Numbered from the stretch's first letter, positions 516 through 35,760 are shown. The stretch: 38,346 nucleotides of DNA from a virus (IMGVR_UViG_3300042892_004166:79097-117442), one strand, 5' to 3'. Notes: a model not told the origin generated them from the sequence alone. Numbers and translations: made by a program.

Positions 516-1226
516 ATGGAACTAAATAAGAAATATATTGAATTTATGCTAGACAATGTTATTGGTTCTAGTGTAAAGGTTCAATTGCCAAAACCCCAAG
601 AAGGTGGAAGGGTGTTGTGGGTTAAACTTGGCCCTGTAGTTTATATGAACGTTGATTTAGAAGTTATTGAAAAATACTCACGTTCGGTTAAATTCAAACT
701 TAAATTTGACAAATACGAAATTGAGGAATTGATATTCCTTCCAGTAGAATCGGCTCCAATGAGCATCAAATCAAAGTTAATTAGCAAGATTGAAAAATTA
801 GTTTTTAAAACCCTTCTTGATGATGGAAGACGTGAAGATATTGTAAAAATGTATGAAGAAAAGCAAAAGCATATCAATTCAGCAATATTAAAAGTTGCAA
901 CTAAAATCAAAGAACTTGATAAATCAAAGGCCAATTATGTGCATACGACGCACTGTCCTCGTTTAAGTCTCTTAAACTTTGAAGGTGACCTTTTCAGAGT
1001 GTATGATTTACTGGATGGTAGATTTACAATTGTTAATGAAAAGCATCAAGACGTAGTTACTACAAATGCTGTTGGAATTTTAGAGTATATGATTACGCCA
1101 AAGCCTATTGTTAATTATGACGGAAAGGCTTGGATTATACCACACCAACATGAGAATGCCAGACCATCTCAAGAGGCACTTTACAAATTTCTTAAATTAG
1201 AACTTCCAACTCAAATAGTTAAATGA
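516..1226 (+). CDS. hypothetical protein, 236 aa
   Basis: Long ORF tightly packed between neighbours; no motif recognised. Confidence 0.75.
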   Translation: MELNKKYIEFMLDNVIGSSVKVQLPKPQEGGRVLWVKLGPVVYMNVDLEVIEKYSRSVKFKLKFDKYEIEELIFLPVESAPMSIKSKLISKIEKLVFKTLLDDGRREDIVKMYEEKQKHINSAILKVATKIKELDKSKANYVHTTHCPRLSLLNFEGDLFRVYDLLDGRFTIVNEKHQDVVTTNAVGILEYMITPKPIVNYDGKAWIIPHQHENARPSQEALYKFLKLELPTQIVK

Positions 1227-1625
1227 ATGAAAACATCAGTATTAAAATCCAACACGGTTAATCTTAATGGTAGAATGTACACTGATGAATGTTTAGAACA
1301 AATGGTTGCTCAATTTAAACAGAAAGTTTCGAATGGAGTTCAAATGTTTGGAGAACTTGGTTATCCTGAAAGTACTTCTTTTACCTCTTTAGAAAGAGTT
1401 TCGCATCAAGTCGAAAACCTTCAAGTGGAAGGAGATACTCTTTTTGCAGAAATCAAAGTCCTCGATACGCCCAGGGGAAAGGAGTTAAAAACTCTATTAG
1501 ATGATATTGTATTTAGACCTAGGATGATAGGACATGTCCTTGAAGATAATACAGTTAGGGTTGATAATTTAATCTCATTTGACGCAATATTAAAAGAAAC
1601 AGATTCATATAAAGACATATTGTAA
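1227..1625 (+). CDS. T4 gp21-like prohead core protease homolog, apparently catalytically degenerate
   Basis: NLNGRMY, MFGELGYP, RVSHQVENL, EIKVLDTPRGK, RPRMIG and FDA align in order with gp21-family NxNxRxY, GELxHP, SHxI, xxTPxG, SSRGxG and D motifs. The catalytic His and Ser positions read Y and P. Confidence 0.75.
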   Translation: MKTSVLKSNTVNLNGRMYTDECLEQMVAQFKQKVSNGVQMFGELGYPESTSFTSLERVSHQVENLQVEGDTLFAEIKVLDTPRGKELKTLLDDIVFRPRMIGHVLEDNTVRVDNLISFDAILKETDSYKDIL

Positions 1626-1674: not shown

Positions 1675-2235
1675 ATGATAATATTATATTTAAAAGAATC
1701 ACCATTAGGTTTAAAATATCTAGGAAAATGTGTAAATACCGATCCTTATAAATATAAGGGAAGTGGCACCGTATGGAAAAGACATTTAAAAACACATAAC
1801 ATATCATCTAATGATATAAAAACAACAATTTTATTTGAAACTGAAGATAAAGAAAAATTAATACAAATGGGTTTGTATTATTCAAAATTATGGGATGTTG
1901 TTAATAGTAAAGAATTTGCAAATTTAATACCTGAGCAAGGAGATGGAGGTAATACTGGAGGTTTTAAAAAAGGTGTTATATTTACAGACGAGCACAGAAA
2001 AAAATTAAGTATTGCTAGAAGTAAACAAAAAGATTCACCTGAAAGAATTAAAAAAAGAAGTGAATCAACTTCAAAAACTAAAAAAGGAAAACCTTTAAGT
2101 AATACACATATAGAGTCACTAAAAAAACCAAAAAATAAAGAAAAAAACTGTGCTACATGTAGTATATGTGGAAAATTTACAACAAAAACCGTTATTAGTA
2201 GAGACCATGGAAAAAATAAATGCGATAAAAAATAA
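1675..2235 (+). CDS. free-standing GIY-YIG (Seg-like) homing endonuclease with NUMOD3-like motifs and C-terminal Cys/His finger
   Basis: N-terminal IILYLK..GLKYLGK..DPYKYKGSG..WKRHL; conserved E/N region (FETED...ANLIPE); FTDEHRKKLS and PLSNTHIESL NUMOD3-like segments; CSICGK...HGKNKC tail. Confidence 0.8.
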   Translation: MIILYLKESPLGLKYLGKCVNTDPYKYKGSGTVWKRHLKTHNISSNDIKTTILFETEDKEKLIQMGLYYSKLWDVVNSKEFANLIPEQGDGGNTGGFKKGVIFTDEHRKKLSIARSKQKDSPERIKKRSESTSKTKKGKPLSNTHIESLKKPKNKEKNCATCSICGKFTTKTVISRDHGKNKCDKK

Positions 2236-3424
2236 TACTTTAGACAAGCAATACACCAACCTGCTCCAAGACATATTAGACAATGGAGTAGTTAAAGGTG
2301 ACAGGACAGGTACAGGAACGGTCTCAGTTTTTGGACGCCAAATAAGACACAAAATGTCCGAAGGGTTTCCACTACTTACAACTAAAAAGATGCCATTCAA
2401 AACAATCGTAACAGAACTTCTTTGGTTCTTACGAGGTGATACAAATATTAAGTATTTGGTTGATAATAATTGCCATATTTGGGATGGAGACTGTTATAAG
2501 AGATATTCAATTACAATGGGAATGACTGGTCAGGTAGAATCATTAACGCAAGAAGAGTTCATCAACAAAATTAAAACAGATAATGAGTTTGGAAAGATGT
2601 GGGGTGAGTTGGGGCCTATTTATGGTAAGCAATGGAGAAAATGGGATGTAAAACCTACCATGAACTCAGAAACAGGTGAAATCTTTATTGGGAACGTATG
2701 GGTAGACCAAATCCAAAATCTAATCAACGATCTTAAAACAAATCCAGACTCAAGACGATTAATGGTCAATGCTTGGAATGTTGGAGAATTAGACCAAATG
2801 GTTCTTCCACCTTGTCATTATGGAATTCAAGTTTATACAAGAGAGTTGAGTGAAGGTGAAAGAGAAGATTTATATTGGAAAAGATATGGTTATGATTCAG
2901 TAAATATGGAAGGTAATGATTTAACTGGAATCCCAACCAGAGCAATCTCCCTAATGTGGAATCAACGTTCAGTAGATACATTCTTAGGTTTACCATTCAA
3001 CATTACAAGTTATGGACTCCTATTAGAAATCTTGGCAAAAGAGGTCAATATGGTTCCTGATCAGTTAATTGGAAATCTTGGCGATGTTCACCTTTATTCA
3101 AATCATATTGAACAAGCAAAGAAACAAATAGGAAGAGAATTAAAATTCCCAGAAAGGGCAGAAATGCTAAAAGACAAAATGGGTGAGGAACAATACAATA
3201 AAGCAGTTGATGAATTAATGCCATTTGGTGGGGGTATGAGTGAGTATTTTGAAACTTATAACATTCCATACAGTACTAGTGAACCTTTTCCATTACCGAC
3301 GTTAAAAATAAACCCAAACAATAAAATGAGAATAGGTGGCGGAATATTCACATATGATAGAGGTGATTTTACTGTTGAGAACTATCAATCACACGCAGAA
3401 ATTAAAGCACCACTAAGTAACTAA
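2207..3424 (+). CDS. thyA: thymidylate synthase (ThyA/Td type)
   Basis: DRTGTGT, FPLLTTKK, ELLWFLRG, GPIYGKQWR, SRRLMVNAWN, LPPCH (catalytic Cys), QRSVDTFLGLPFNI (Asn, dUMP-specific), GDVHLYSNH. Start placed at ATG 2207 rather than the supplied 2150. Confidence 0.97.
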   Translation: MEKINAIKNNTLDKQYTNLLQDILDNGVVKGDRTGTGTVSVFGRQIRHKMSEGFPLLTTKKMPFKTIVTELLWFLRGDTNIKYLVDNNCHIWDGDCYKRYSITMGMTGQVESLTQEEFINKIKTDNEFGKMWGELGPIYGKQWRKWDVKPTMNSETGEIFIGNVWVDQIQNLINDLKTNPDSRRLMVNAWNVGELDQMVLPPCHYGIQVYTRELSEGEREDLYWKRYGYDSVNMEGNDLTGIPTRAISLMWNQRSVDTFLGLPFNITSYGLLLEILAKEVNMVPDQLIGNLGDVHLYSNHIEQAKKQIGRELKFPERAEMLKDKMGEEQYNKAVDELMPFGGGMSEYFETYNIPYSTSEPFPLPTLKINPNNKMRIGGGIFTYDRGDFTVENYQSHAEIKAPLSN

Positions 3425-3629: not shown

Positions 3630-3947
3630 ATGAAAGAACATAAAGCAAAAGTCCGTAAAATAGTTAAGGAGTGGAAAGAAGCCACCAATAAAGAAATTTG
3701 GGAAGGGGTCAGAGATAACTTTATATTTGCTTTTATTGGAGCCACCTTAGTAGTATTTATTGCAACCAAAACCGACATTGCAGTTATACTAGGTTATTTG
3801 ACATACTATTCTTTTATGGGTAAGATTTTAAATAGACCTAAATATGTTACAGATTTTGGAAAACTAATAGTGTTTCCAATACCATCAGCGATTGGAGCCT
3901 TTGTAGGATATAAATTAAGTTACATTTTATTAAATTACATATCGTGA
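3630..3947 (+). CDS. small membrane protein (2-3 TM helices)
   Basis: Basic N-terminus followed by hydrophobic segments FIFAFIGATLVVFI, IAVILGYLTYYSFM, LIVFPIPSAIGAFVGY. Confidence 0.75.
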   Translation: MKEHKAKVRKIVKEWKEATNKEIWEGVRDNFIFAFIGATLVVFIATKTDIAVILGYLTYYSFMGKILNRPKYVTDFGKLIVFPIPSAIGAFVGYKLSYILLNYIS

Positions 3948-3957
3948 TATATAATTA

Positions 3958-4152
3958 ATGAAAACATTTAAAGAATTTACAATTGACGAGGCCAAAACAA
4001 TCGGCTTAGAGGATATTCAACCTAATAATGAAATTAATCCAGTCGAACCAGGAGATGGCGAAGACCCAAGACTGGTAAAAATTCGACAATTCAAAGGAAC
4101 TGTTGCAGATTATGCATCTTACTGGGAAGACCGAATTAAAGGCGATATATAA
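3958..4152 (+). CDS. putative capsid internal protein with T4 IPI-like leader MKTFKEFTIDE|A
   Basis: The first 8 residues match the T4 IPI N-terminus as I recall it (MKTFKEFT), followed by I-D-E-A, a gp21-type cleavage site. Own GATATATA motif at 3946-3953. Confidence 0.65.
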   Translation: MKTFKEFTIDEAKTIGLEDIQPNNEINPVEPGDGEDPRLVKIRQFKGTVADYASYWEDRIKGDI

Positions 4153-5928: not shown

Positions 5929-6384
5929 ATGAAAAAAATACTTTATATTGACCTTGATGGAGTAATGGTAGACTTAGAGAGTCATGCAATCAAGAGACAT
6001 GGACCCAATGCCGTTGAAAAACTTGGGAGGTTAACTTCAATTGACAAAGAACTTTTTGAAGAACCAGAACCTATTCCAGGTGCTATTGAAGCAGTCAAAT
6101 ACCTATGGGATAAATTTGACATCTATTTCCTAACAACTGCACCTTGGAGCAATCCAACAAGTTTCTCATCTAAAAGAAGATGGGTACAAAAGAATCTTGG
6201 TAAATATGCGCACAAGAGGTTAATTATCTCACATCGTAAAGACCTTTGTATTGGTGATTTCTTAATCGACGACCGTCCAAATAATGGCGCTGCCGAATTC
6301 CGTGGAGAATGGATTCAGTTTGGACAACCAGGATTTGAGGATTGGACCGAGATTATAAACTATCTTGAAAATCTTGATATATAA
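5929..6384 (+). CDS. 5'(3')-deoxyribonucleotidase (NT5C-type HAD phosphatase)
   Basis: YIDLDGVMVD (HAD motif I), PIPGAIEAV, LTTAPW, KRRWVQKNLG, KRLIISHRKDL, GDFLIDDRP (motif IV). Confidence 0.9.
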   Translation: MKKILYIDLDGVMVDLESHAIKRHGPNAVEKLGRLTSIDKELFEEPEPIPGAIEAVKYLWDKFDIYFLTTAPWSNPTSFSSKRRWVQKNLGKYAHKRLIISHRKDLCIGDFLIDDRPNNGAAEFRGEWIQFGQPGFEDWTEIINYLENLDI

Positions 6385-6407: not shown

Positions 6408-7094
6408 ATGAAATATACACAATTATTCGAAGAATTCTTAAATGAAGCTATGATATCAGTTTCTAATAAAAGTATTAATTCAAGGAAGTCTAAAATTGAT
6501 ACATCTTTAATAGATAAATTAGTTAAACAGATTGCACCTGTATTAAATACAGAACATAGCGAATCATTAACTAAAAAAAGATATGAAGATGTTATTATGG
6601 CTATTGCCAAAAATATTTCTGGTAGTAGTGCATTACAAGACCCGGGTTTAATCTTTGAAAGAAACTTAAATGAAGCTAAAGAATATTCATTCTCTTTTAA
6701 TTACAATACCGATGAGGATGACGTAGAATACGTTCAAAACATTTTACATGATGCTGGAGTTGATGCGATTGCAGAGCCTGGAATAGATTCTGAAGAGATG
6801 ATGGTTAAAGCCAAAAATGCAGTTGAATTGCGTAAGGCTAAGAAAGCAATCCAATCAGATGGATTTGAAGTTAATGAATCAGAAGTTAGCGAAGGAATCA
6901 ATGTTAAAGACATTAAAGTTGGTACTATTCTAAACTTTAAAGATGGTGAAACATGGAAAGTTACTAAAACTTCTGGAATCTCTTCCGGAAAGATTTTTGC
7001 AGCCCCTTATGGCGATACTAAAAAGAGTTACGTTTCATTACCTATCGAGTTTTCAACTGAAAACTTAGAAAAAGATGTAACATCAATAGAATAA
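6408..7094 (+). CDS. putative capsid-targeted multi-domain protein (leader MKYTQLFEEFLNE|A)
   Basis: Leader plus internal LNE|A and VNE|SEVSE|G linkers separating three unrelated segments. GATATATA upstream at 6376. Confidence 0.65.
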   Translation: MKYTQLFEEFLNEAMISVSNKSINSRKSKIDTSLIDKLVKQIAPVLNTEHSESLTKKRYEDVIMAIAKNISGSSALQDPGLIFERNLNEAKEYSFSFNYNTDEDDVEYVQNILHDAGVDAIAEPGIDSEEMMVKAKNAVELRKAKKAIQSDGFEVNESEVSEGINVKDIKVGTILNFKDGETWKVTKTSGISSGKIFAAPYGDTKKSYVSLPIEFSTENLEKDVTSIE

Positions 7095-7096
7095 TC

Positions 7097-7567
7097 ATGA
7101 AACATATGCAACTATTTAACGAGTTCTTAGGAGAGTCTCAATCCTTTATTTATGAATCCAGTATTGGAGATATTCATATCATGGCTCAAGAGGCAGATTC
7201 TTTCACGGGATTCAGAAAGGCTTTTATGGACGAATATGGCAAACCAAAGTCAGTTAAAGAACTCAAAAGTTTAGAGGCTTGGTTACAAACTATTTGGAAT
7301 GAAAATGAAAGTCTTACAAACGAGGCAAAGTCTGAAGTATATCCAGAAGAGGTTCAAAAGATAATTGATAGTCTTATTGGAATTGGTATGAAAAAATATC
7401 AATTAACTGCAACTACAAATTATGGAGTTTGGTTTATAGAATTACCAATGACCGCAATACATATTGGTAATTTAAAGAAAATTGAAAAAATTATACCAGA
7501 CTTTAACATTGGAATCTGGAATGGTTATTCAGGATTATCAATTAGAACAAATATACAAGTACAATAA
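7097..7567 (+). CDS. putative capsid-targeted protein (leader MKHMQLFNEFLGE|S)
   Basis: Leader; internal IYE|S and NENESLTNE|A linkers. Confidence 0.65.
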   Translation: MKHMQLFNEFLGESQSFIYESSIGDIHIMAQEADSFTGFRKAFMDEYGKPKSVKELKSLEAWLQTIWNENESLTNEAKSEVYPEEVQKIIDSLIGIGMKKYQLTATTNYGVWFIELPMTAIHIGNLKKIEKIIPDFNIGIWNGYSGLSIRTNIQVQ

Positions 7568-7568
7568 T

Positions 7569-7943
7569 ATGAAACACATATCTACATTCGAAGGATTTGT
7601 AAATGAATCAAAAAAAGAGAAAATGAGTGGTGCAACCTACTGGGAAGAAGTTACCATACCAAGTATTGGTTCAAACAATACTGTAAAAGCAAATAATGAT
7701 TCAACTAAAGCGGCACAGGCATTAGTTAGTTTCTGGGAGAAAGGTAAATCACCTGAATCAGCAGGATTCAGTGTTAGAGACATTGCATCTTTGGACCTAT
7801 CAAAAGCTAAAACCGGTGATGTAATCACTTGTAAGTTTATTGATGGTAAAACAGATAAAGATTATTTAATTAGAATGGAAGTTCGAGATACTCTATTAGG
7901 AGTTCCTAACAAAAACATATATACTTGGGTTTCTCGAGTATAA
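7569..7943 (+). CDS. putative capsid-targeted protein (leader MKHISTFEGFVNE|S)
   Basis: Start re-assigned to ATG 7569 (1 nt after the upstream stop), where the family leader begins; the supplied 7482 start overlaps the previous gene. Confidence 0.65.
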   Translation: MKHISTFEGFVNESKKEKMSGATYWEEVTIPSIGSNNTVKANNDSTKAAQALVSFWEKGKSPESAGFSVRDIASLDLSKAKTGDVITCKFIDGKTDKDYLIRMEVRDTLLGVPNKNIYTWVSRV

Positions 7944-7952
7944 TTCATTAGT

Positions 7953-8720
7953 ATGAAAAAAGTAAAATTATTCGAGCAGTACATTACTGAAGGTAAGGAT
8001 GTATTTCCAAATGAAATTGTTGGAAACGACCAAATTCTTTTTAAGAAAGAATGGGAGAAAATGAATGGTGGAAAACTTGCTGCCAAATATAACCAATACT
8101 ACAAAGGTTATGATATTGATGCAGGTGGACGTATATTTAATACAGTCGATCAGTTAGAAAAGTACATTAAGGCTACAGAGCTTTCAAACAATCAATACCA
8201 AAAATATAAATACATGCCGGAAATTCCAATTAAGGAATCTAATAATGGAATTGATAGCGATATTAAAAAACTGGAAACTTTAATCAGAAAACAATTCAAT
8301 GTTGTAGAGTTTAAGGCCCCATCAAAGAGACCCTCAAGTAATGAGGAATATTTAATGGTTAAAGTAAAAGACGATAAATACGGAGGACCTCAATCAGGTT
8401 TAGGTAAATTTATTAAAAGATGGACAGGCGTAGAATCCAGTTTTGTAGACAATTACGGAAATGATAAAGTATATTGGGTTTCATTAGAGAAAATAGAAAA
8501 TGGACCAGGTGTTCATGAATCTACAGTTAACGAATCTACCAATATAAAAGATTTCTTTAAAGACCCAATGAATCTAGCTGATGCTAAAGGTTGGGTAAGA
8601 AATTTGAAACTATCTGATGATGAGATAAAAACTAAGATAAAAGCAGTAATGAAAGATCCGTCTAAATTTAATGATTTAATGGATGCAATGACTGATGAAT
8701 TAAACTTAAAATGGAAATGA
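7953..8720 (+). CDS. putative capsid-targeted multi-domain protein (leader MKKVKLFEQYITE|G)
   Basis: Leader; internal IKE|S and VHESTVNE|S linkers delimit three segments. Confidence 0.65.
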   Translation: MKKVKLFEQYITEGKDVFPNEIVGNDQILFKKEWEKMNGGKLAAKYNQYYKGYDIDAGGRIFNTVDQLEKYIKATELSNNQYQKYKYMPEIPIKESNNGIDSDIKKLETLIRKQFNVVEFKAPSKRPSSNEEYLMVKVKDDKYGGPQSGLGKFIKRWTGVESSFVDNYGNDKVYWVSLEKIENGPGVHESTVNESTNIKDFFKDPMNLADAKGWVRNLKLSDDEIKTKIKAVMKDPSKFNDLMDAMTDELNLKWK

Positions 8721-9082
8721 AACATGTAAAACTATACGAAGAATTTGTTAACGAGGCTAATCTAATAGATACTCTTTTACCAGTTGCTTGGGGACTTACA
8801 TGGTTTTCTCCATGGATTTTTGCAATGTGGTTAGGAACTGACGCAGGACAAGACTTTCAAAACTCAACGTCTTGGAAAGACCAATATAAAAAATGGAAAT
8901 CGGATGCTGCCGTTACTAAAATTGTTTCACGTCTAGAAAGTGATGAGGACATTAAACAATTTTTATTACTACCTCGTACAAAACAAAGAGGACAATGGCA
9001 AAAGTTAATTGCATCTAAATTGACTGACTCTGAAATGACATATCTTAAAAAAATAAACAAAGGACCTTTTTATTCACTATGA
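8717..9082 (+). CDS. putative capsid-targeted protein with hydrophobic segment (leader MKHVKLYEEFVNE|A)
   Basis: ATGA overlap with the upstream stop; leader followed by LLPVAWGLTWFSPWIFAMWLG. Confidence 0.65.
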   Translation: MKHVKLYEEFVNEANLIDTLLPVAWGLTWFSPWIFAMWLGTDAGQDFQNSTSWKDQYKKWKSDAAVTKIVSRLESDEDIKQFLLLPRTKQRGQWQKLIASKLTDSEMTYLKKINKGPFYSL

Positions 9083-9885
9083 AAAAAGTAAAATTATTTG
9101 AACAATATATCGCAGAAGCCACAACTTCTTGGGGTAAAATGATGAAAGGCGTTAGAGCCGGAGATGGTGGACCATGGTCGATTGTAGCCATTGAGTATAA
9201 TAAAGTAGTTGGACAGTCGAACAATATTAAAATTCAAGACTTGATCCCTGCAAAATATGAAGCCCTTAAAAAAGAATTTCCAAGAGCCAAGTTTCATATT
9301 GAAGATGCTGGAGGACAGGTTGTTTGGAATGAATCAGTTACTAATGAAGCCTTAGCAGCAGCCTCCCAAGATAAATTAACAAATCACGACACCTTAACTG
9401 CAAAGGTTAATGCAACACTAATTAGTAATGCTAGAAATGGAGTCCTGAAAAAAATGACAGAACCTGGTGGTAAAACTCATTATTGGAATCCTGAGACAAA
9501 AGAATATGTAGCAAAAACAGTTACTTACAATGGCAAAGGAGAATATCTTTATTCAGATGCCATAGACAAGGATGGTAATCTTACAGAATCATTTATGAAT
9601 GAGGCAAAAGATTCTACTAGAGACGAATTGATGAACCTATTAGAAACTAAATACAAACTTAGAACTGTCCGAACTTCTGAAGAATTCAACGGACAAACTG
9701 AAGGAATTTGGATCGCAGGTGATAATGGAGAAGAACTTGGAGGTAATCCAATTTTTGATTACTATAGCAACTCATCAAAATATGCTAATGGAGTACTAAA
9801 ACAGTTTAGAACAACAGTTGAAAAAACAGGTTGGTGGTTAGAATGGAACGATCCAGGAACTCTAATGATCTGGCCAAAAAATTAA
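9079..9885 (+). CDS. putative capsid-targeted multi-domain protein (leader MKKVKLFEQYIAE|A)
   Basis: Leader ends in IAE|A exactly like T4 IPII/IPIII; internal WNESVTNE|A and LTESFMNE|A linkers. Confidence 0.7.
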   Translation: MKKVKLFEQYIAEATTSWGKMMKGVRAGDGGPWSIVAIEYNKVVGQSNNIKIQDLIPAKYEALKKEFPRAKFHIEDAGGQVVWNESVTNEALAAASQDKLTNHDTLTAKVNATLISNARNGVLKKMTEPGGKTHYWNPETKEYVAKTVTYNGKGEYLYSDAIDKDGNLTESFMNEAKDSTRDELMNLLETKYKLRTVRTSEEFNGQTEGIWIAGDNGEELGGNPIFDYYSNSSKYANGVLKQFRTTVEKTGWWLEWNDPGTLMIWPKN

Positions 9886-9892
9886 TAAAGAT

Positions 9893-10363
9893 ATGAAAAA
9901 AGTAAAATTATTCGAAGAGTTTATTGGCGAAGGTGCTATAAATCTTAATGCTGACCATTTATCGTCTTCAGAATATCAAAAAGCTAAGAAACTTAAAGAT
10001 TTTGATGCTGCTGATTGGAAATGGAATGGAGATACTGAACTTTATGATAAAGTTACAGAATCTGAAACAATTATGCATGAATATGATTTCTTAGGAATGC
10101 AGGCTCAAGCTGCTAACATGACTAGAGAAGAATGGATTGCACACTATGGAACTCCTGAAATTGGCTCTGGAATAGATGAAGCAAAGAAAAGTATTTACAC
10201 AGTATTTTTCGATGATACGAATGGAATGGAATGGGATTGGGAAGTTGAAGCAACATCACCTGAAGAGGCCATTAAATTACTACAAGATTATAAAGCAAAA
10301 GGACCTCACGGCGAGAATCTTCCAAGAGGAGCCCGTAACTTTACTGCAAAGTTATATAAATAA
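9893..10363 (+). CDS. putative capsid-targeted multi-domain protein (leader MKKVKLFEEFIGE|G)
   Basis: Leader; internal VTESETIMHE and IDE|A linkers. Confidence 0.65.
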   Translation: MKKVKLFEEFIGEGAINLNADHLSSSEYQKAKKLKDFDAADWKWNGDTELYDKVTESETIMHEYDFLGMQAQAANMTREEWIAHYGTPEIGSGIDEAKKSIYTVFFDDTNGMEWDWEVEATSPEEAIKLLQDYKAKGPHGENLPRGARNFTAKLYK

Positions 10364-10388: not shown

Positions 10389-10438
10389 CATTGGGTCTTT
10401 TTAGTTTGATATATATTATAGACTAAAAAGACCCAATG
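10389..10438 (+). promoter_or_regulatory. 17-bp hairpin sequestering the ATG of the next gene, with the GATATATA promoter motif in its loop
   Basis: CATTGGGTCTTTTTAGT (10389-10405) is the perfect reverse complement of ACTAAAAAGACCCAATG (10422-10438). GATATATA at 10408-10415; ATG at 10436-10438. Confidence 0.75.
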
Positions 10439-15113: not shown

Positions 15114-15776
15114 ATGACTCAAAAAACACTTGACCGAATGTCTTTAAGGTTAGCAAATGATATTTTTGCTCAATGGAATTTGGACTATCATTTAGGCAAA
15201 ACCCATTCAACCTTATTTAAACAAGTAAAAGCGAATGGACCCGAATTCGACATTGATGCTACAATTTATTTTGGAAGTGTTAATGGACAACCAATCCTAG
15301 GATTCACATCATTTGATTCAACAGGAGCCGATAGTCGAGACTTTGACAATGATGACAACTCTCAAACGCCATTTATAATTATTGATTTTGGTATCGAAGC
15401 CGCTTGGCTTCCTGAATACTTTAGTGAACTATATTTCCATCTTATTGATGTTGTCCGACATGAAGTAGAACATATAACCCAAGGTGGTGAGAGCATTGGA
15501 AACTACATACCTGGCAAGCCATCTGGTGATGATTCTATGGAACGTGAATTGATACACCAAGGGCTCTTACCTCAATCAACCTACCTCATCCTACCCAAAG
15601 AAATTGATGCAAATCTAGAAGGACTCCGATTAGAATCTCAAGTTCGCGGAGAAATAATGATAAATACCCTAAATAGATACTTAGATACTCAAGGTTTAAG
15701 TCAACCGGAGAGAACACAAGTGGTCGATCTTTGGAGAAAACGTGCTAAAAAAATTGGAGCAATTCCACAATTCTAA
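15114..15776 (+). CDS. HExxH (zincin-like) putative metallopeptidase
   Basis: DVVRHEVEHITQ followed by a downstream EIDA acidic motif that could supply the third Zn ligand. Confidence 0.55.
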   Translation: MTQKTLDRMSLRLANDIFAQWNLDYHLGKTHSTLFKQVKANGPEFDIDATIYFGSVNGQPILGFTSFDSTGADSRDFDNDDNSQTPFIIIDFGIEAAWLPEYFSELYFHLIDVVRHEVEHITQGGESIGNYIPGKPSGDDSMERELIHQGLLPQSTYLILPKEIDANLEGLRLESQVRGEIMINTLNRYLDTQGLSQPERTQVVDLWRKRAKKIGAIPQF

Positions 15777-16388
15777 ATGAAAAAGGTTAAATTATTTGAA
15801 GAGTACCAAATGAGCGATATGGTTCAAGAAATCCATAGAATTCATGAAGGCGAACTGAATGAAGAACAAATCAATCAACTTATAAATGAGGGTTTCTTTG
15901 ATTGGATTAAGGGTATTTTTTTAAATCCAATGAAAAAGAGAAAACTTCGACAATTAGCAGATAAATTGGTTGACGTTAGAGTTGAACTTGGAAAGTTAAA
16001 AATTGAACAAGACCAAATTGAGGAACTTCAAGCTGAAGCTGAAGCTTCAGCAGAAGAGGACCCATATACATATTCTGAAACATCACGTCCAAGTTCTTAT
16101 AGTAGCAGTAGTACTAATAGCGGTAGTGCAGCATTTCAACTTAAAGAGGATTCATTAACCGAACTAGAAAATGCAATCATTGATAACATGGATGCTATTG
16201 GACAGGAAAATGAAACTCTTCAAAAATACGTAAGTACTGTTAAACTTGATGCCAGAATGAAGTCCACTGAAAAACTTATTAAAATGGCAGATTCTGATAT
16301 TAAAAGAATCCTTGTAAAATCCTTAAAAAAGGATAAAAGCACAGTAGATTCCCTACAAAAAGAAATTAAATCTTCAATAGACTCTTAA
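15777..16388 (+). CDS. putative capsid-targeted coiled-coil protein (leader MKKVKLFEEY)
   Basis: Family leader; IHE|G, LNE and INE|G sites in the first 40 aa; helical body with a Ser-rich linker. Confidence 0.6.
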   Translation: MKKVKLFEEYQMSDMVQEIHRIHEGELNEEQINQLINEGFFDWIKGIFLNPMKKRKLRQLADKLVDVRVELGKLKIEQDQIEELQAEAEASAEEDPYTYSETSRPSSYSSSSTNSGSAAFQLKEDSLTELENAIIDNMDAIGQENETLQKYVSTVKLDARMKSTEKLIKMADSDIKRILVKSLKKDKSTVDSLQKEIKSSIDS

Positions 16389-19700: not shown

Positions 19701-22700
19701 GAATACAAGGAGCCCAAGGTTTTCAAGGTGCCCAAGGAATACAAGGTGCCCAAGGTTTTCAAGGTTTTCAAGGTGCTCAAGGCTTCCAAGGTGCTCAGGG
19801 AATACAAGGAGCCCAAGGTTTTCAAGGTGCTCAAGGAATACAAGGAGCACAAGGTTTTCAAGGTGCTCAAGGTTTTCAAGGTGCTCAAGGAATACAAGGA
19901 GCACAAGGTAGACAAGGAGCACAAGGTTTTCAAGGTGCTCAAGGAATACAAGGTGCTCAAGGTTTCCAAGGTGCCCAAGGTTTTCAAGGTGCTCAAGGTT
20001 TTCAAGGAGCTCAAGGAATACAAGGAGCCCAAGGTTTTCAAGGTGCTCAGGGAATACAAGGAGCCCAAGGTTTTCAAGGTGCTCAGGGAATACAAGGAGC
20101 CCAAGGTTTTCAAGGTGCTCAGGGAATACAAGGAGCCCAAGGTTTCCAAGGTGCTCAAGGCTTCCAAGGAATTAGAGGAGTAGCAAATTGGACACCTGTT
20201 TTTAATGGTGGCACAGTATATGGTGCAAATTCAAATATATTTCATAAAGCAATAGGTAACGATGATATTTTTGATGCTGAAGTATATTCATTAGAGGGTT
20301 ATACTAGAGGATGTTATGTATCGGCTCAACCACAATCAAATCTTAATTATATACTATTTGGTTTAAGTGATAATCCTTCTGCATCGCCTAGTTTTCCAGG
20401 TATTAATTATGCATGGTATGTCACTGAATACAATAGTGTAGAAATCTATGAAAGTGGAGGTGTAATAGTTGCTTTAGGTGCATATACATCAGATACTATT
20501 TTACAAATAACATATGATGGTTATAATGTAAGATATTGGAAAGATGGTATTCTACAACGAACTGTTGCAAGGGCAATAGGTAACGCTCTATATTTTGATT
20601 CTACTTTCTTCCGTACAATATCATATACTAATGGTACACCTAATGGTTTAAAGAATGTTGTTTTTGGACCAATGGGAGAACAAGGACCACAAGGAGCCCA
20701 AGGTTTCCAAGGTTTTCAAGGTGCTCAAGGAATACAAGGAGCCCAAGGTTTCCAAGGAGCCCAAGGAATACAAGGAGCCCAAGGTTTTCAAGGTGCCCAA
20801 GGTAGACAAGGAGCCCAAGGTTTCCAAGGTGCTCAGGGAATACAAGGTTTCCAAGGTGCCCAAGGAATACAAGGAGCCCAAGGAATACAAGGAGCCCAAG
20901 GTTTCCAAGGTGCTCAAGGTTTCCAAGGAGCTCAAGGTTTCCAAGGTGCTCAAGGAATACAAGGTGCCCAAGGTTTTCAAGGTGCTCAGGGAATACAAGG
21001 TGCTCAGGGAATACAAGGAGCCCAAGGTTTCCAAGGTTTTCAAGGTGCTCAAGGAATACAAGGAGCCCAAGGTTTCCAAGGTGTTCAAGGTTTTCAAGGT
21101 GCTCAGGGAATACAAGGAGCCCAAGGTTTTCAAGGTGCCCAAGGATTTCAAGGTGCTCAGGGAATACAAGGAGCCCAAGGAATACAAGGAGCCCAAGGTT
21201 TCCAAGGTGCCCAAGGAATACAAGGTGCTCAAGGTTTCCAAGGTGCCCAAGGTTTCCAAGGTGCCCAAGGAATACAAGGAGCCCAAGGTTTCCAAGGTGC
21301 CCAAGGTTTCCAAGGAGCTCAAGGTAGACAAGGAGCCCAAGGTTTCCAAGGAGCCCAAGGAATACAAGGAGCCCAGGGTTTTCAAGGTTTCCAAGGAGCC
21401 CAAGGAATACAAGGTGCTCAAGGTTTCCAAGGTGCCCAAGGTTTCCAAGGAGCTCAAGGTAGACAAGGAGCCCAAGGTTTCCAAGGTGCTCAAGGTTTCC
21501 AAGGAGCCCAAGGTTTCCAAGGCGCTCAAGGTTTCCAAGGACCTGGATTTACAACAATAACAAACCCATCAGATAATAGAGTTTTAACTTCAGATGGTGG
21601 TACAAATACTGCTAATGCTGAAGCTAATTTAACATTTAATGGAACTGACCTAGTTAATGGAGCTGGTTCTATTATAGCACTTGGAATTGATAATTTTAAA
21701 CAAAACGGAACATTAACAAATAAGGTAATAACAAGTGATACGACACAAGTAGCTCAAACACCAATATCACCTTATTTATGGCATGACTTATTTGCATTTT
21801 CTAGGTTTTCACCAACATTTTCAACTTCATCTAATAATGTAACATATAATGCAGCAACGCTTAATAAAGAAGTATTTGCGCAAAAAGAAAATCAAACAAT
21901 CGAAGTTGCTGATGGAGTTACAGTAACTTCTGTAAGATGGAATTGGACAGGAATGGAGTGGTCAATAGGAGAATGGTTAGTTATTGGTTCAACTTATACA
22001 GCTACAGCACCAATAAAAAATGTTGTATATGAAACTTCTGCAGATAATATAAATTGGATAGTAAGACATACTTCGACAAATAATCATAATGCAATCGCTG
22101 CGTGGTTTTATGTTAATTGGTATGGCGGAGATGCATATTCTCGTTTAACACTTACAGCTACAACTCCGGCTCCAATTCGGATTTCGTCAATTAAACTTTT
22201 AAGTGCAAGATGGGGTGATCAAGGACTAGGTAGCGAAATTGAAAAACCGTTTACTTGGGATGGTGACAAAAACATTACAACAGGAGCAAAACTTAAAATT
22301 ACAACTGTTCCAGCCGGAACAACAACCGATATTCTTGTAAAAGAAAGTGATGGGACTGTTGGTTTTAGGAGTAGTATTGCACTCGGAGGAGCCCAAGGTT
22401 TCCAAGGTGCTCAAGGTTTCCAAGGTGCTCAAGGAATACAAGGTGCTCAAGGTTTCCAAGGTGCTCAGGGAATACAAGGAGCCCAAGGTTTCCAAGGTTT
22501 TAGAGGTTCATCAAATTGGACACCATTATTCAATGGCGGAGTAACTTATGCAGAAAATTCAAATACTTTCTATAAAGCAACAGGTAATGATGCTCAATGG
22601 GATGGACAAGTATATTCTTTAGAAGGATATACTAGAGGAGCTTATGTATCAACTCAATTAAGTAATACTGGTGAACAACTTATGGTTGGATTAAATAGCG

Positions 22701-34522: not shown

Positions 34523-35107
34523 ATGAAAAAAATAAAACTATTCGAACAATTCGTAAACGAGGCTAAAAGTTATAGTATCAAAGGAATGATTAAGAAGGCA
34601 ACCACTGATAAAACAGATAGATTGCCATACGTAACAATAAATCAAGATGTTGATAAATTCATCTCTAGATGGGCATGGAACCAAGACCTAGAGGTACTTG
34701 ATTTTACTCCAGAAATGAGAGCTGAATTTGAAGACGGAATCCGTGCTGCAGGATATGATGTAGTTGATATTAAAGACATTGAAAAACAAAAAGTATTCAG
34801 TGCCCTAATGAAGGACCTACAAAAATCATTTGATTGGGACGTTAAATTAACTCCAGAAAAGAGTAATACAACACCTAATAGACCCTTAATCCATATTCCA
34901 CTTAAAGGCGGAAAGGCAGGAAAACTAGAAGATGGAGAACCGATTATCGATCTTAAGATTGGGAATAGTTCAAAATCCTATTTTAACTCAACTGCCAATG
35001 AATTTAGAACTTGGTTACATGATAGAGGATATGCAATTATCACTAATGATGGTAAACCATACATCACCGCATTATTCGCAACAAGAGGAGAACCATCATA
35101 CTATTAA
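34523..35107 (+). CDS. putative capsid-targeted protein (leader MKKIKLFEQFVNE|A)
   Basis: Family leader. Confidence 0.65.
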   Translation: MKKIKLFEQFVNEAKSYSIKGMIKKATTDKTDRLPYVTINQDVDKFISRWAWNQDLEVLDFTPEMRAEFEDGIRAAGYDVVDIKDIEKQKVFSALMKDLQKSFDWDVKLTPEKSNTTPNRPLIHIPLKGGKAGKLEDGEPIIDLKIGNSSKSYFNSTANEFRTWLHDRGYAIITNDGKPYITALFATRGEPSYY

Positions 35108-35110
35108 TCT

Positions 35111-35518
35111 ATGAAACTTGTAAAACTATTCGAACAATTCCTAAATGAATCCAAAAAACAGGAAGCCGCTATCGAAAAGGTAGAAGGACTTCCAAAGGGT
35201 TCTATATTCGATGATGCAAAACGAATAGATGGTATCTTCCAAATCAGTAACCGTCCCTGGAGCGAAATAGTCCAAACATGGGAGGAGAACGAGGACAAGG
35301 CCAAACCTAAAACCATTAACCCAAAGGATATACATATCACTCAAAGGAATATACAATCTAGTAAGGTTACAGAGATGATACTTAGAGAGGGTAAAGTCAA
35401 AACAATAAATGTTATCGAATACCCAGAAGGACCTGTAATCTACGACGGCCACCACAGACTCACTAAGGCCTGGGCCCTAGGAGAAACCAAACTCAAAGTA
35501 AACTACTTAAAATTATGA
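35111..35518 (+). CDS. ParB/Sulfiredoxin-like N-terminal domain protein carrying the capsid-targeting-like leader (MKLVKLFEQFLNE|S)
   Basis: INPKDIHITQ...INVI.Y...VIYDGHHRLTKA matches the ParB/Srx DGHHR motif. Confidence 0.7.
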   Translation: MKLVKLFEQFLNESKKQEAAIEKVEGLPKGSIFDDAKRIDGIFQISNRPWSEIVQTWEENEDKAKPKTINPKDIHITQRNIQSSKVTEMILREGKVKTINVIEYPEGPVIYDGHHRLTKAWALGETKLKVNYLKL

Positions 35519-35760
35519 AACATATCAAACCCTTTGAAGCGTTCTTAAATGAATCCAGTAAATACCAAATTGAAATTATCTATGATAAACCATTTGACAC
35601 TACAACAATCCAAGGTGCATCGCCAGACGGATTTAAAGGAATTACAGTAAAAGGTAATTTTGAAACCCAGTGGAAAGGCAAGTATACTGATATCGATGCT
35701 GCCATCCGGAACATAGAAAAGGGTTTCCACAAATACGATATTATAGACATACAAAAATAA
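35515..35760 (+). CDS. putative capsid-targeted small protein (leader MKHIKPFEAFLNE|S)
   Basis: Family leader; ATGA coupling. Confidence 0.65.
   Translation: MKHIKPFEAFLNESSKYQIEIIYDKPFDTTTIQGASPDGFKGITVKGNFETQWKGKYTDIDAAIRNIEKGFHKYDIIDIQK

Follow-up and report, generated by a model that had tools for sequence, protein, structure and literature searches.

The stretch of DNA analysed here (the window, 38,346 nucleotides [nt]) is the minus strand of positions 20506–58851 in a 234,467-bp contig of an uncultured virus from IMG/VR, which has a G+C content of 34% and carries almost every gene on one strand. It contains twelve open reading frames (ORFs), each named below by its first position, which start with a related leader peptide; the larger ones are divided by short, recurrent joints into segments, here called modules. 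Seven of them follow one another between positions 6408 and 10363, and the other five start at 3958, 15777, 34523, 35111 and 35515, all on the plus strand. Shine-Dalgarno sequences were absent at the gene starts inspected, which were those of the window. Arrows in peptide sequences mark predicted cleavage positions.

The array begins 32 nt behind a copy of the motif GATATATA (6376–6383, plus strand; the next copy is at 10408) with putative polyprotein 1 (ORF 6408, 228 amino acids [aa], 6408–7094, leader 6408–6446), whose three modules of 76, 73 and 66 aa are separated by the joints ERNLNE↓A (6657–6674) and VNE↓SEVSE↓G (6870–6893). Putative polyprotein 2 (ORF 7097, 156 aa, 7097–7567, leader 7097–7135) has two modules and one joint, ESLTNE↓A (7307–7324), and is followed by a gene in which the leader (7569–7607) precedes a single module of 111 aa (7569–7943). 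In putative polyprotein 3 (ORF 7953, 255 aa, 7953–8720, leader 7953–7991), the joints EIPIKE↓S (8220–8237) and ESTVNE↓S (8517–8534) separate modules S1, S2 and S3 (82, 99 and 61 aa). Another single-module gene (ORF 8717, 8717–9082, leader 8717–8755) encodes 108 aa with a hydrophobic stretch behind the leader; a further ATG upstream, at 8711, would add the residues ME. Putative polyprotein 4 (ORF 9079, 268 aa, 9079–9885, leader 9079–9117) consists of modules A, B and C (77, 85 and 93 aa) with the joints ESVTNE↓A (9331–9348) and ESFMNE↓A (9586–9603). The last gene of the array, for putative polyprotein 5 (156 aa, 9893–10363, leader 9893–9931), has the sites VTE↓S (10052–10060) and IDE↓A (10172–10180) between modules of 43, 40 and 60 aa.

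Outside the array, ORF 3958 (3958–4152) joins a leader of T4 length, MKTFKEFTIDE↓A (3958–3990), to a 53-aa module and has a GATATATA copy at 3946. ORF 15777 (15777–16388) has a leader-like start, MKKVKLFEEY, and a longer propeptide, its first good site, LINE↓G (15882–15890), being reached at residue 38. Three more tagged genes lie at 34523–35107 (leader 34523–34561, 181-aa module), 35111–35518 (leader 35111–35149, 122-aa module with a DGHHR motif) and 35515–35760 (leader 35515–35553, 68-aa module). When only sites supported by comparison with relatives are counted, the array of seven genes comprises 16 modules and the full set of twelve window genes 21, each of 40–181 aa; genome-wide, the number is nearer 60.

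Leader and joint motifs

The consensus MK(K/H)(V/I)KLFE(E/Q)(F/Y)xxE was found at the N-terminus of all twelve ORFs, as an earlier reading of the stretch, made by a model from the sequence alone (the sequence-only reading), had claimed. A, S or G was said to follow the leader, which is the case, behind a Glu, in 11 of the 12; the exception is ORF 15777, which departs from the leader after residue 10. The family was put at twelve genes, a number that is right for the window and too small for the genome, where a hidden Markov model (HMM) of the leader and a regular expression together gave ∼24–26 N-terminal copies, clustered at 23–24, 48–52, 106–108, 119, 159, 170, 172–181 and 233 kb. A degenerate DNA pattern of the leader matched the 234-kb genome 24 times on the gene strand and not once on the other strand or in a reversed control. 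The bodies behind the leaders are indeed unrelated, each window ORF matching itself and no other in the genome (BLAST, E < 1e-4).

The leader had also been likened to the capsid targeting sequence (CTS) of phage T4, and the two correspond at the positions for targeting and for processing. Read from the T4 record, the products of ipII and ipIII both begin MKTYQEFIAE↓A; the leader of ORF 9079 ends ...LFEQYIAE↓A. In an alignment anchored on the Glu, T4 Y-Q-E-F-I-A-E pairs with F-E-Q-(F/Y)-(I/V/L)-x-E of this phage. Residues 4 and 7 of the T4 CTS govern targeting and residues 8 and 10 processing (PMC9026906), and all four have counterparts here (two aromatics, a hydrophobic P3 and Glu at P1). The leaders have the make-up of a T4-type propeptide, that is, a length of ∼10–20 aa, aromatics at the targeting positions and Φ-x-E (Φ, hydrophobic) before a small residue.

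The joint has the consensus Φ-x-E-S-x-(V/L/I)-N-E↓(A/S/G), which amounts to two Φ-x-E sites in tandem, five residues apart; Φ-x-E is the cleavage rule of T4 gp21. In the joint, the six residues that end the leader are repeated, with Glu in positions P6 and P1, Asn in P2 and a hydrophobic residue in P3, and a small residue follows in P1′; P8 is frequently hydrophobic as well. The doubled motifs listed in the sequence-only reading are all in place: NESVTNEA and TESFMNEA in ORF 9079, HESTVNES in ORF 7953, NESEVSEG in ORF 6408 and NESLTNEA in ORF 7097. Genome-wide, ES..NE[ASG] occurred 10 times, compared with 0.18 ± 0.42 in shuffles (maximum 2), and was confined to five proteins, three of them window ORFs and two, of 913 and 1029 aa, encoded outside the window. 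The pattern [LIVMTF]NE[ASG] occurred 52 times, compared with 18.5 ± 3.9 in shuffles.

Synonymous codons are mixed in the leader (TTT/TTC 12:9 and 11:10, CTA/TTA 9:12, CAT/CAC 6:7) and vary silently in the joints (TCA/TCT/AGT/AGC, GTA/GTT, AAT/AAC). As the silent positions of the leader vary, it is the peptide that is conserved and not the DNA or mRNA, which indicates that leader and joints evolve under selection at the protein level. DNA-level recombination or an mRNA signal as the cause of leader and joint conservation was rejected for this genome on the same grounds.

The two large proteins outside the window are giant putative polyproteins. That of 1029 aa (genome 181563–184652; L011:13564–16653, minus strand) has ∼12 segments of 27–132 aa and ∼10 joints of the form ES(V/T)V(N/T/S)E, and that of 913 aa (genome 174251–176992; L011:6252–8993, minus strand) has ∼6 joints of the ES(V/T)VNE type. 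Both lie behind GATATATA motifs within a cluster of leader-tagged genes at 172–185 kb, and neither gave a family match. A 623-aa protein (genome 177017–178888; L011:9018–10889, minus strand) with a cytidylyltransferase-like domain (PF01467, E 2.8e-7) has the C-terminus ...GVVTE↓SVTNEIMTFEQFINKDI, i.e., a joint followed by leader-like sequence, which may be a remnant of genes that fused or split. In a neighbour of 258 aa (genome 171894–172670), a complete copy of the leader, KKFKSFEQFINE↓S, is found inside the protein.

Module exchange and folding

Seven IMG/VR contigs with syntenic arrays (L003–L009) were compared with the window, and gain or loss of modules among them falls exactly at the joints. 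Polyprotein 1 lacks module 1 in L004 and L003, where module 2 stands directly behind the leader; in L004 (8036–8680), module 1 of polyprotein 2 is joined to the end of module 2 of polyprotein 1, and in L007 it lies within an 831-aa chain. Module S3 of ORF 7953 is a free gene of 74 aa with its own leader in L003 (9335–9559), its boundary reading FITE↓STNIKDFF there and TVNE↓STNIKDFF inside ORF 7953. Residues 44–118 of ORF 8717 recur (39% identity) inside a 457-aa polyprotein of L009. The order in ORF 9079, leader+A+B+C, becomes A+C in the L004 orthologue, A+B+(S2-like)+C in L003 (the third being a copy of ORF 7953's central module), P+A+C in L006 and P+Q+R+C in L005; in L009, A is followed by a piece 39% identical to part of the ORF 8717 body and then by more modules. 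Polyprotein 5 is without module 1 in L003 and L004; in L005 and L006, it has another module 1 and no module 3. Beyond the array, the body of ORF 3958 seems to recur as a C-terminal extension of a polyprotein of L007 (alignment read by eye), ORF 35111 has leader-tagged orthologues in L006 and L009, and the orthologue of ORF 15777 in L005 (17789–18406) has kept both the leader-like start and the LINE↓G-type site.

Directly 5′ of ORF 15777 lies a gene (window 15114–15776, plus strand) for a 220-aa protein with the zincin-like HExxH motif (RHEVEHITQGG), for which no Pfam or PHROG family match was obtained. Its 60%-identical orthologue in L005 (17086–17787) bears the leader MKYLNNFESFLNE↓G and the window copy has none; thus, orthologues gain or lose the tag.

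Database proteins were sorted by the modules they contain. ORF 7953 has 73 homologues in a collection of 5.8 billion proteins, and the matches cover entire modules: S1 alone in 27, S2 alone in 18, S3 alone in 15, S1+S3 in nine, S1+S2 in two and all three in two. An exhaustive HMMER search with ORF 9079 yielded 517 representative homologues of 87–876 aa, in which the ends of local matches cluster at residues 1–20, 81–95, 166–176 and 261–268. The junction before module C was compared in 74 representatives, each from a separate 50%-identity cluster, and had E at P6 in 38, S at P5 in 37, V, L or I at P3 in 64, N at P2 in 49, E at P1 in 61 and A at P1′ in 52, irrespective of which module stood upstream. 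Module A starts with ATTSW, which directly follows the leader Glu in most of 41 N-terminal cases and follows ES(L/I)(D/N)E in most of 47 internal ones. Inter-site segments that never occur independently in homologues had been named beforehand as an outcome that would refute the polyprotein idea; the segments clearly do occur alone or recombined, with breakpoints on the predicted sites.

Some homologues of ORFs 7953 and 9079 (P0035, P0038, P0043, P0069–P0071 and others) have the same modules behind other N-termini, namely MKASEFRSLIKEQVKK..., MAYKYKIKE... and MLLKQLLNE↓LKVKDFF. Other phage clades may use leader dialects of their own on these modules.

Modules A and C were folded separately by AlphaFold2, with alignments of ∼75–80 sequences. 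Module C alone reached a predicted local distance difference test (pLDDT) score of 96 and a predicted template-modelling (pTM) score of 0.86, and module A alone 89.7 and 0.79, with the tail that belongs to the joint falling to ∼65. The expectation that segments fold as separate domains thus holds, at high confidence, for the two that were folded. Boundary shuffling and confident separate folds together suggest that the segments are autonomous, portable domains and that the joint belongs to the junction and to neither neighbour.

Searches of Pfam and PHROGs with the tagged window proteins gave nothing above threshold; the only signals, both weak, were a match of module C to a 3D domain and a ParB-like match of ORF 35111 (phrog_1033, E = 2.8e-4). 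No fold in the PDB matched module C at E ≤ 0.001, and its matches in the AlphaFold DB were exclusively unnamed free-standing proteins of 82–105 aa (best template-modelling score 0.81, E 1.7e-5). Module A had no Foldseek match, and its best VIA-align Z score (6.5, to RbcS-like alpha/beta sandwiches) is under the level that would exceed a common arrangement.

Elsewhere in the genome, the leader is also found on an ATP-grasp-like protein and on a 2H phosphoesterase of the Acb1 family (genome 105915–106457; L012:1916–2458, minus strand; PF23474, 31.3 bits at a cut-off of 27). In the latter, the leader is followed by K instead of A, S or G. This protein is a candidate for a pre-packaged enzyme against CBASS (cyclic oligonucleotide-based antiphage signalling system) defence.

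Head genes, expression and interpretation

The head module of the phage keeps the T4 gene order, with portal, a 116-aa acidic protein at the position of gp67/68 that begins MKIIKTFEEF, a 640-aa protease-scaffold protein and a gp23-like capsid protein. The 640-aa protein (genome 139642–141564) is a Peptidase_S77 (gp21-family) protease (PF03420, 46 bits, above the family cut-off) fused to a coiled-coil scaffold. Its protease domain, which spans roughly residues 1–165, can be aligned to T4 gp21 (PDB 5JBL) and retains GELDHP and SSRA at the stretches that hold the catalytic His and Ser in gp21; by its sequence, the prohead protease looks active. The capsid protein matches phrog_138 and T4 gp23 structures, and its closest relatives are those of the uncultured 462-kb phage LR756500.1 (52% identity) and of the Prevotella Lak megaphages (38%), followed by uncultured huge phages of 630–735 kb and by Sphingomonas phage PAU and Tenacibaculum phage PTm1 (34%); the annotation of PTm1 carries the same protease-scaffold fusion. 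The Φ-N-E/small motif of the joints recurs at the border between protease and scaffold, directly after the protease domain (RVNE↓AYGFVNE↓G). MVNE↓S is found in the C-terminal region of the same protein, and the capsid protein begins MANLINE↓AEIRATWAPIIE↓S. By analogy with T4, these are places where cutting by a T4-type protease would be expected.

A second S77-like protein, of 132 aa (window 1227–1625, plus strand), is encoded downstream of a 236-aa ORF (window 516–1226) and is 36% identical to the main protease domain. GELGYP replaces GELDHP and FRPR replaces SSRA; it is probably without the catalytic His and Ser and a paralogue that has lost activity. SPN3US-like phages, too, are reported to have a diverged paralogue of their protease (PMC5694885).

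The motif GATATATA occurs 37 times in the genome, in 29 cases within 60 nt 5′ of a start and mostly at 28–36 nt. It precedes the genes for protease-scaffold, sheath, tube and tail fibre, the first array gene, ORF 3958 and other tagged genes. Between 6408 and 10363 it is absent, and the seven array genes therefore probably form one transcription unit. From the distribution of the motif, the tagged genes are likely expressed late, with the head genes.

Taken together, the tagged genes probably encode internal head proteins of the T4-CTS type in a T4-type jumbo phage, built as polyproteins for its prohead protease. They would be transcribed together with the structural genes, and the 13-residue leader (aromatic-x-x-F-Φ-x-E) would act like the T4 CTS and dock the protein on the prohead's scaffold core. 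The S77 (gp21-type) protease would then cleave after the Glu at the leader end and at every internal joint, freeing autonomous modules of 40–110 aa, which would be kept in the head with the DNA, would probably enter the cell at infection and might act there against host defences. If the same short joint bounds every module, modules could be gained, lost, joined together or set free behind a leader of their own and still be processed, and this tolerance would explain the mosaicism among relatives. The sequence-only reading had spoken of roughly 20 injected effectors; the number suits the window with its 21 modules, and the term effector is unsupported for them, as they lack a family or fold match.

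Several observations weigh against this interpretation. Several tagged genes beyond the window have K, I or R directly after the leader. Tenacibaculum phage PTm1 did not contain the leader pattern, and LR756500.1 had it no more often than the control; both phages may use different leaders. Modules C and S3 are nearly always the last in their protein, so that the shuffling is not position-free. The predicted isoelectric points of the modules range from 4.3 to 9.4, whereas the internal proteins of T4 are uniformly basic. The motif GATATATA is also found 5′ of some non-structural genes, e.g., homing-endonuclease-like ORFs, and the late timing is for that reason not proven. A tblastn search with ORF 7953 against 50,697 phage records gave no match, and neither did a nucleotide search with the array against the same records; no cultured relative with these modules was found among them. 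The missing matches of the window modules to families and folds belong here as well.

Shuffling at the joints would also be seen if the chains stayed uncut like beads on a string, with the joints serving only as flexible linkers or recombination joints and the N-terminal peptide serving, for example, solubility or the initiation of translation in a host that does without Shine-Dalgarno sites. With such a role of the leader, the lack of Shine-Dalgarno sequences at the window starts and the A/T-rich leader codons would fit. We nevertheless hold uncut chains to be improbable. Leader and joint are kept as amino acids while their silent sites vary, and the motif persists over cluster representatives less than 50% identical; conservation at the protein level argues against a joint that acts as DNA or a signal that acts as mRNA. 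A flexible linker would, moreover, have no need of an invariant Glu with a small residue behind it. The joint also reproduces the six residues at the leader's end and the protease/scaffold border motif, and the leader itself matches the experimentally defined CTS of T4 (PMC9026906). That all these features are an artefact of chance, composition or ORF miscalling has next to no probability: nothing but the low G+C content (34%) of the genome speaks for it, and it is refuted by the strand and reversed controls (24 leader matches versus 0), by the shuffles (10 occurrences of ES..NE[ASG] versus 0.18) and by the junction logo over 74 clusters. Conservation of the features extends, in addition, to the related contigs L003–L009 and to hundreds of proteins in the databases.

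Cleavage, in turn, need not mean delivery. The proteins could be disposable core or filler of the prohead like T4 gp22, gp67 and gp68, loaded by the leader and cut into fragments that leave before DNA packaging, as the core proteins of T4 are cut to small fragments that exit the head (PMC5694885). The related start of the protein at the gp67/68 position is in line with such a role, and propeptide cutting at multiple sites is known in SPN3US (PMC10052503). However, the modules are well-folded domains of 60–100 aa, larger than the fragments of T4 core proteins (PMC5694885), and show extreme diversity and mosaicism among close relatives, which fits accessory genes in an arms race better than parts of an assembly. 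Among the proteins tagged outside the window there are also enzymes, the Acb1-family phosphoesterase and the ATP-grasp-like protein. A pure filler function is thus unlikely, and packaged modules that stay with the DNA remain the preferred interpretation.

On a wider scale, and as a conjecture to which we give a little less than an even chance, T4-type jumbo phages of Bacteroidota-like hosts might use a readable grammar of head cargo, consisting of leader and six-residue joint, by which dozens of small proteins would be packed as polyproteins and diced by the prohead protease within the capsid. Since a module bounded by the joint would be processed properly in any position, the joint would make the cargo combinatorially evolvable. 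If this grammar holds, it would account for ∼21 modules in the window and ∼60 in the genome, and injected proteins, new anti-defence ones included, would become predictable from the sequences of uncultured phages. Injected phage proteins act ahead of phage gene expression and have been a source of specific anti-restriction inhibitors (T4 Ip1–3), and beyond the T-even phages their recognition is difficult; leader and joint would mark such cargo in metagenomic phages. The grammar would further multiply the candidates for small inhibitors and explain their diversification through module exchange. The T4 CTS, already a tool for loading foreign proteins into capsids, would be extended to multi-protein payloads released by the capsid protease.

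Known systems and further features of the contig

That internal proteins unrelated to one another carry a CTS and are encoded in arrays is established for T-even phages, and T4 Ip1–3 are injected inhibitors of GmrSD (PMC12373910, PMC9026906, PMC3012670); the ip loci of these phages are polymorphic (Mullaney & Black, 1996; Repoila et al, 1994; both as cited in PMC9026906 and PMC12373910). As these loci are arrays of this kind (PMC12373910, PMC9026906), a claim of novelty would be too strong for the tagged arrays themselves. What was not found described, in a full-text search of the literature, is the polyprotein and joint architecture, in which short leaders are combined with a joint dedicated to the prohead protease and modules are exchanged at exact boundaries. 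The phage shares with T4 IPI–III and Alt a short N-terminal tag that ends in Φ-x-E/small and stands on unrelated, non-conserved proteins, and further a gp21-family protease, a T4-type head module and the arrangement of tagged genes in arrays. Unlike in T4, where internal proteins (IPII, IPIII and Ip1–3) are described as one leader plus one body, many tagged genes here chain two to three modules, and the 1029-aa protein as many as ∼12; modules are exchanged between genes, the conserved six-residue joint repeats the leader end, the leader is three residues longer, and there are ∼26 tagged genes compared with three plus Alt.

Polyvalent proteins are mosaic and predicted to be packaged, and their processing by peptidases has been proposed (Iyer, Burroughs, Anand, de Souza & Aravind, 2017; PMC5512222). 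Common to both systems are multiple modules, high mosaicism, a position next to virion genes and the prediction that the proteins are delivered along with the DNA and serve in host conflict (PMC5512222). Recognisable enzymatic domains (zincin-like MPTase, ART, DdrB-like ParB, PBECR and others) define the polyvalent proteins, which often have their own peptidase and MuF or portal fusions (PMC5512222), whereas the window proteins are much smaller and have a grammar of leader and joint that is apparently made for the prohead protease. Except for the weak ParB-like match of ORF 35111, none of the hallmark domains was detected in the window proteins by Pfam and PHROGs, whose HMMs may miss diverged domains.

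In the giant phages phiKZ and SPN3US, too, a gp21-related protease (gp175 in phiKZ, gp245 in SPN3US) cuts many head-internal proteins, ejection and inner-body proteins among them, after Glu, and some of its substrates at several sites (PMC5694885, PMC10052503). Differences lie in the motif, A-x-E in SPN3US compared with (V/L/I)-(N/x)-E here, and in the propeptides, which in SPN3US mostly measure 111–254 aa (two are of 20–24 aa) compared with leaders of 11–13 aa (PMC10052503). In SPN3US, it is the propeptide that is fragmented, and the mature protein is one piece (PMC5694885, PMC10052503). A shared short leader or module shuffling has not been described for either phage. The cleavage motif of phiKZ is S/A/G-x-E. 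Polyproteins of eukaryotic RNA viruses and retroviruses are similar in that a viral protease cuts one product at short conserved junctions into functional proteins; their proteases and replication strategies are unrelated, and in the phage, cutting would take place inside the assembling capsid and would yield accessory cargo and not a replication or structural set.

The two ends of the contig (1–400 and 233190–233591) share one leader-tagged ORF of 133 aa together with the 40 nt upstream of it; uninterrupted exact identity is limited to the first 127 nt, which match from position 233192 onward. The repeat could be a terminal redundancy or an assembly wrap-around, and because the ORF is present at both ends, the genome may be nearer to completeness than the 77% given by CheckV. 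In the window, an ORF that by eye resembles a GIY-YIG homing endonuclease (1675–2235, plus strand) runs into the beginning of the gene for a 424-aa thymidylate synthase (2150–3424, plus strand) whose Pfam match falls into two stretches; this overlap could represent an insertion or an intron-like interruption.

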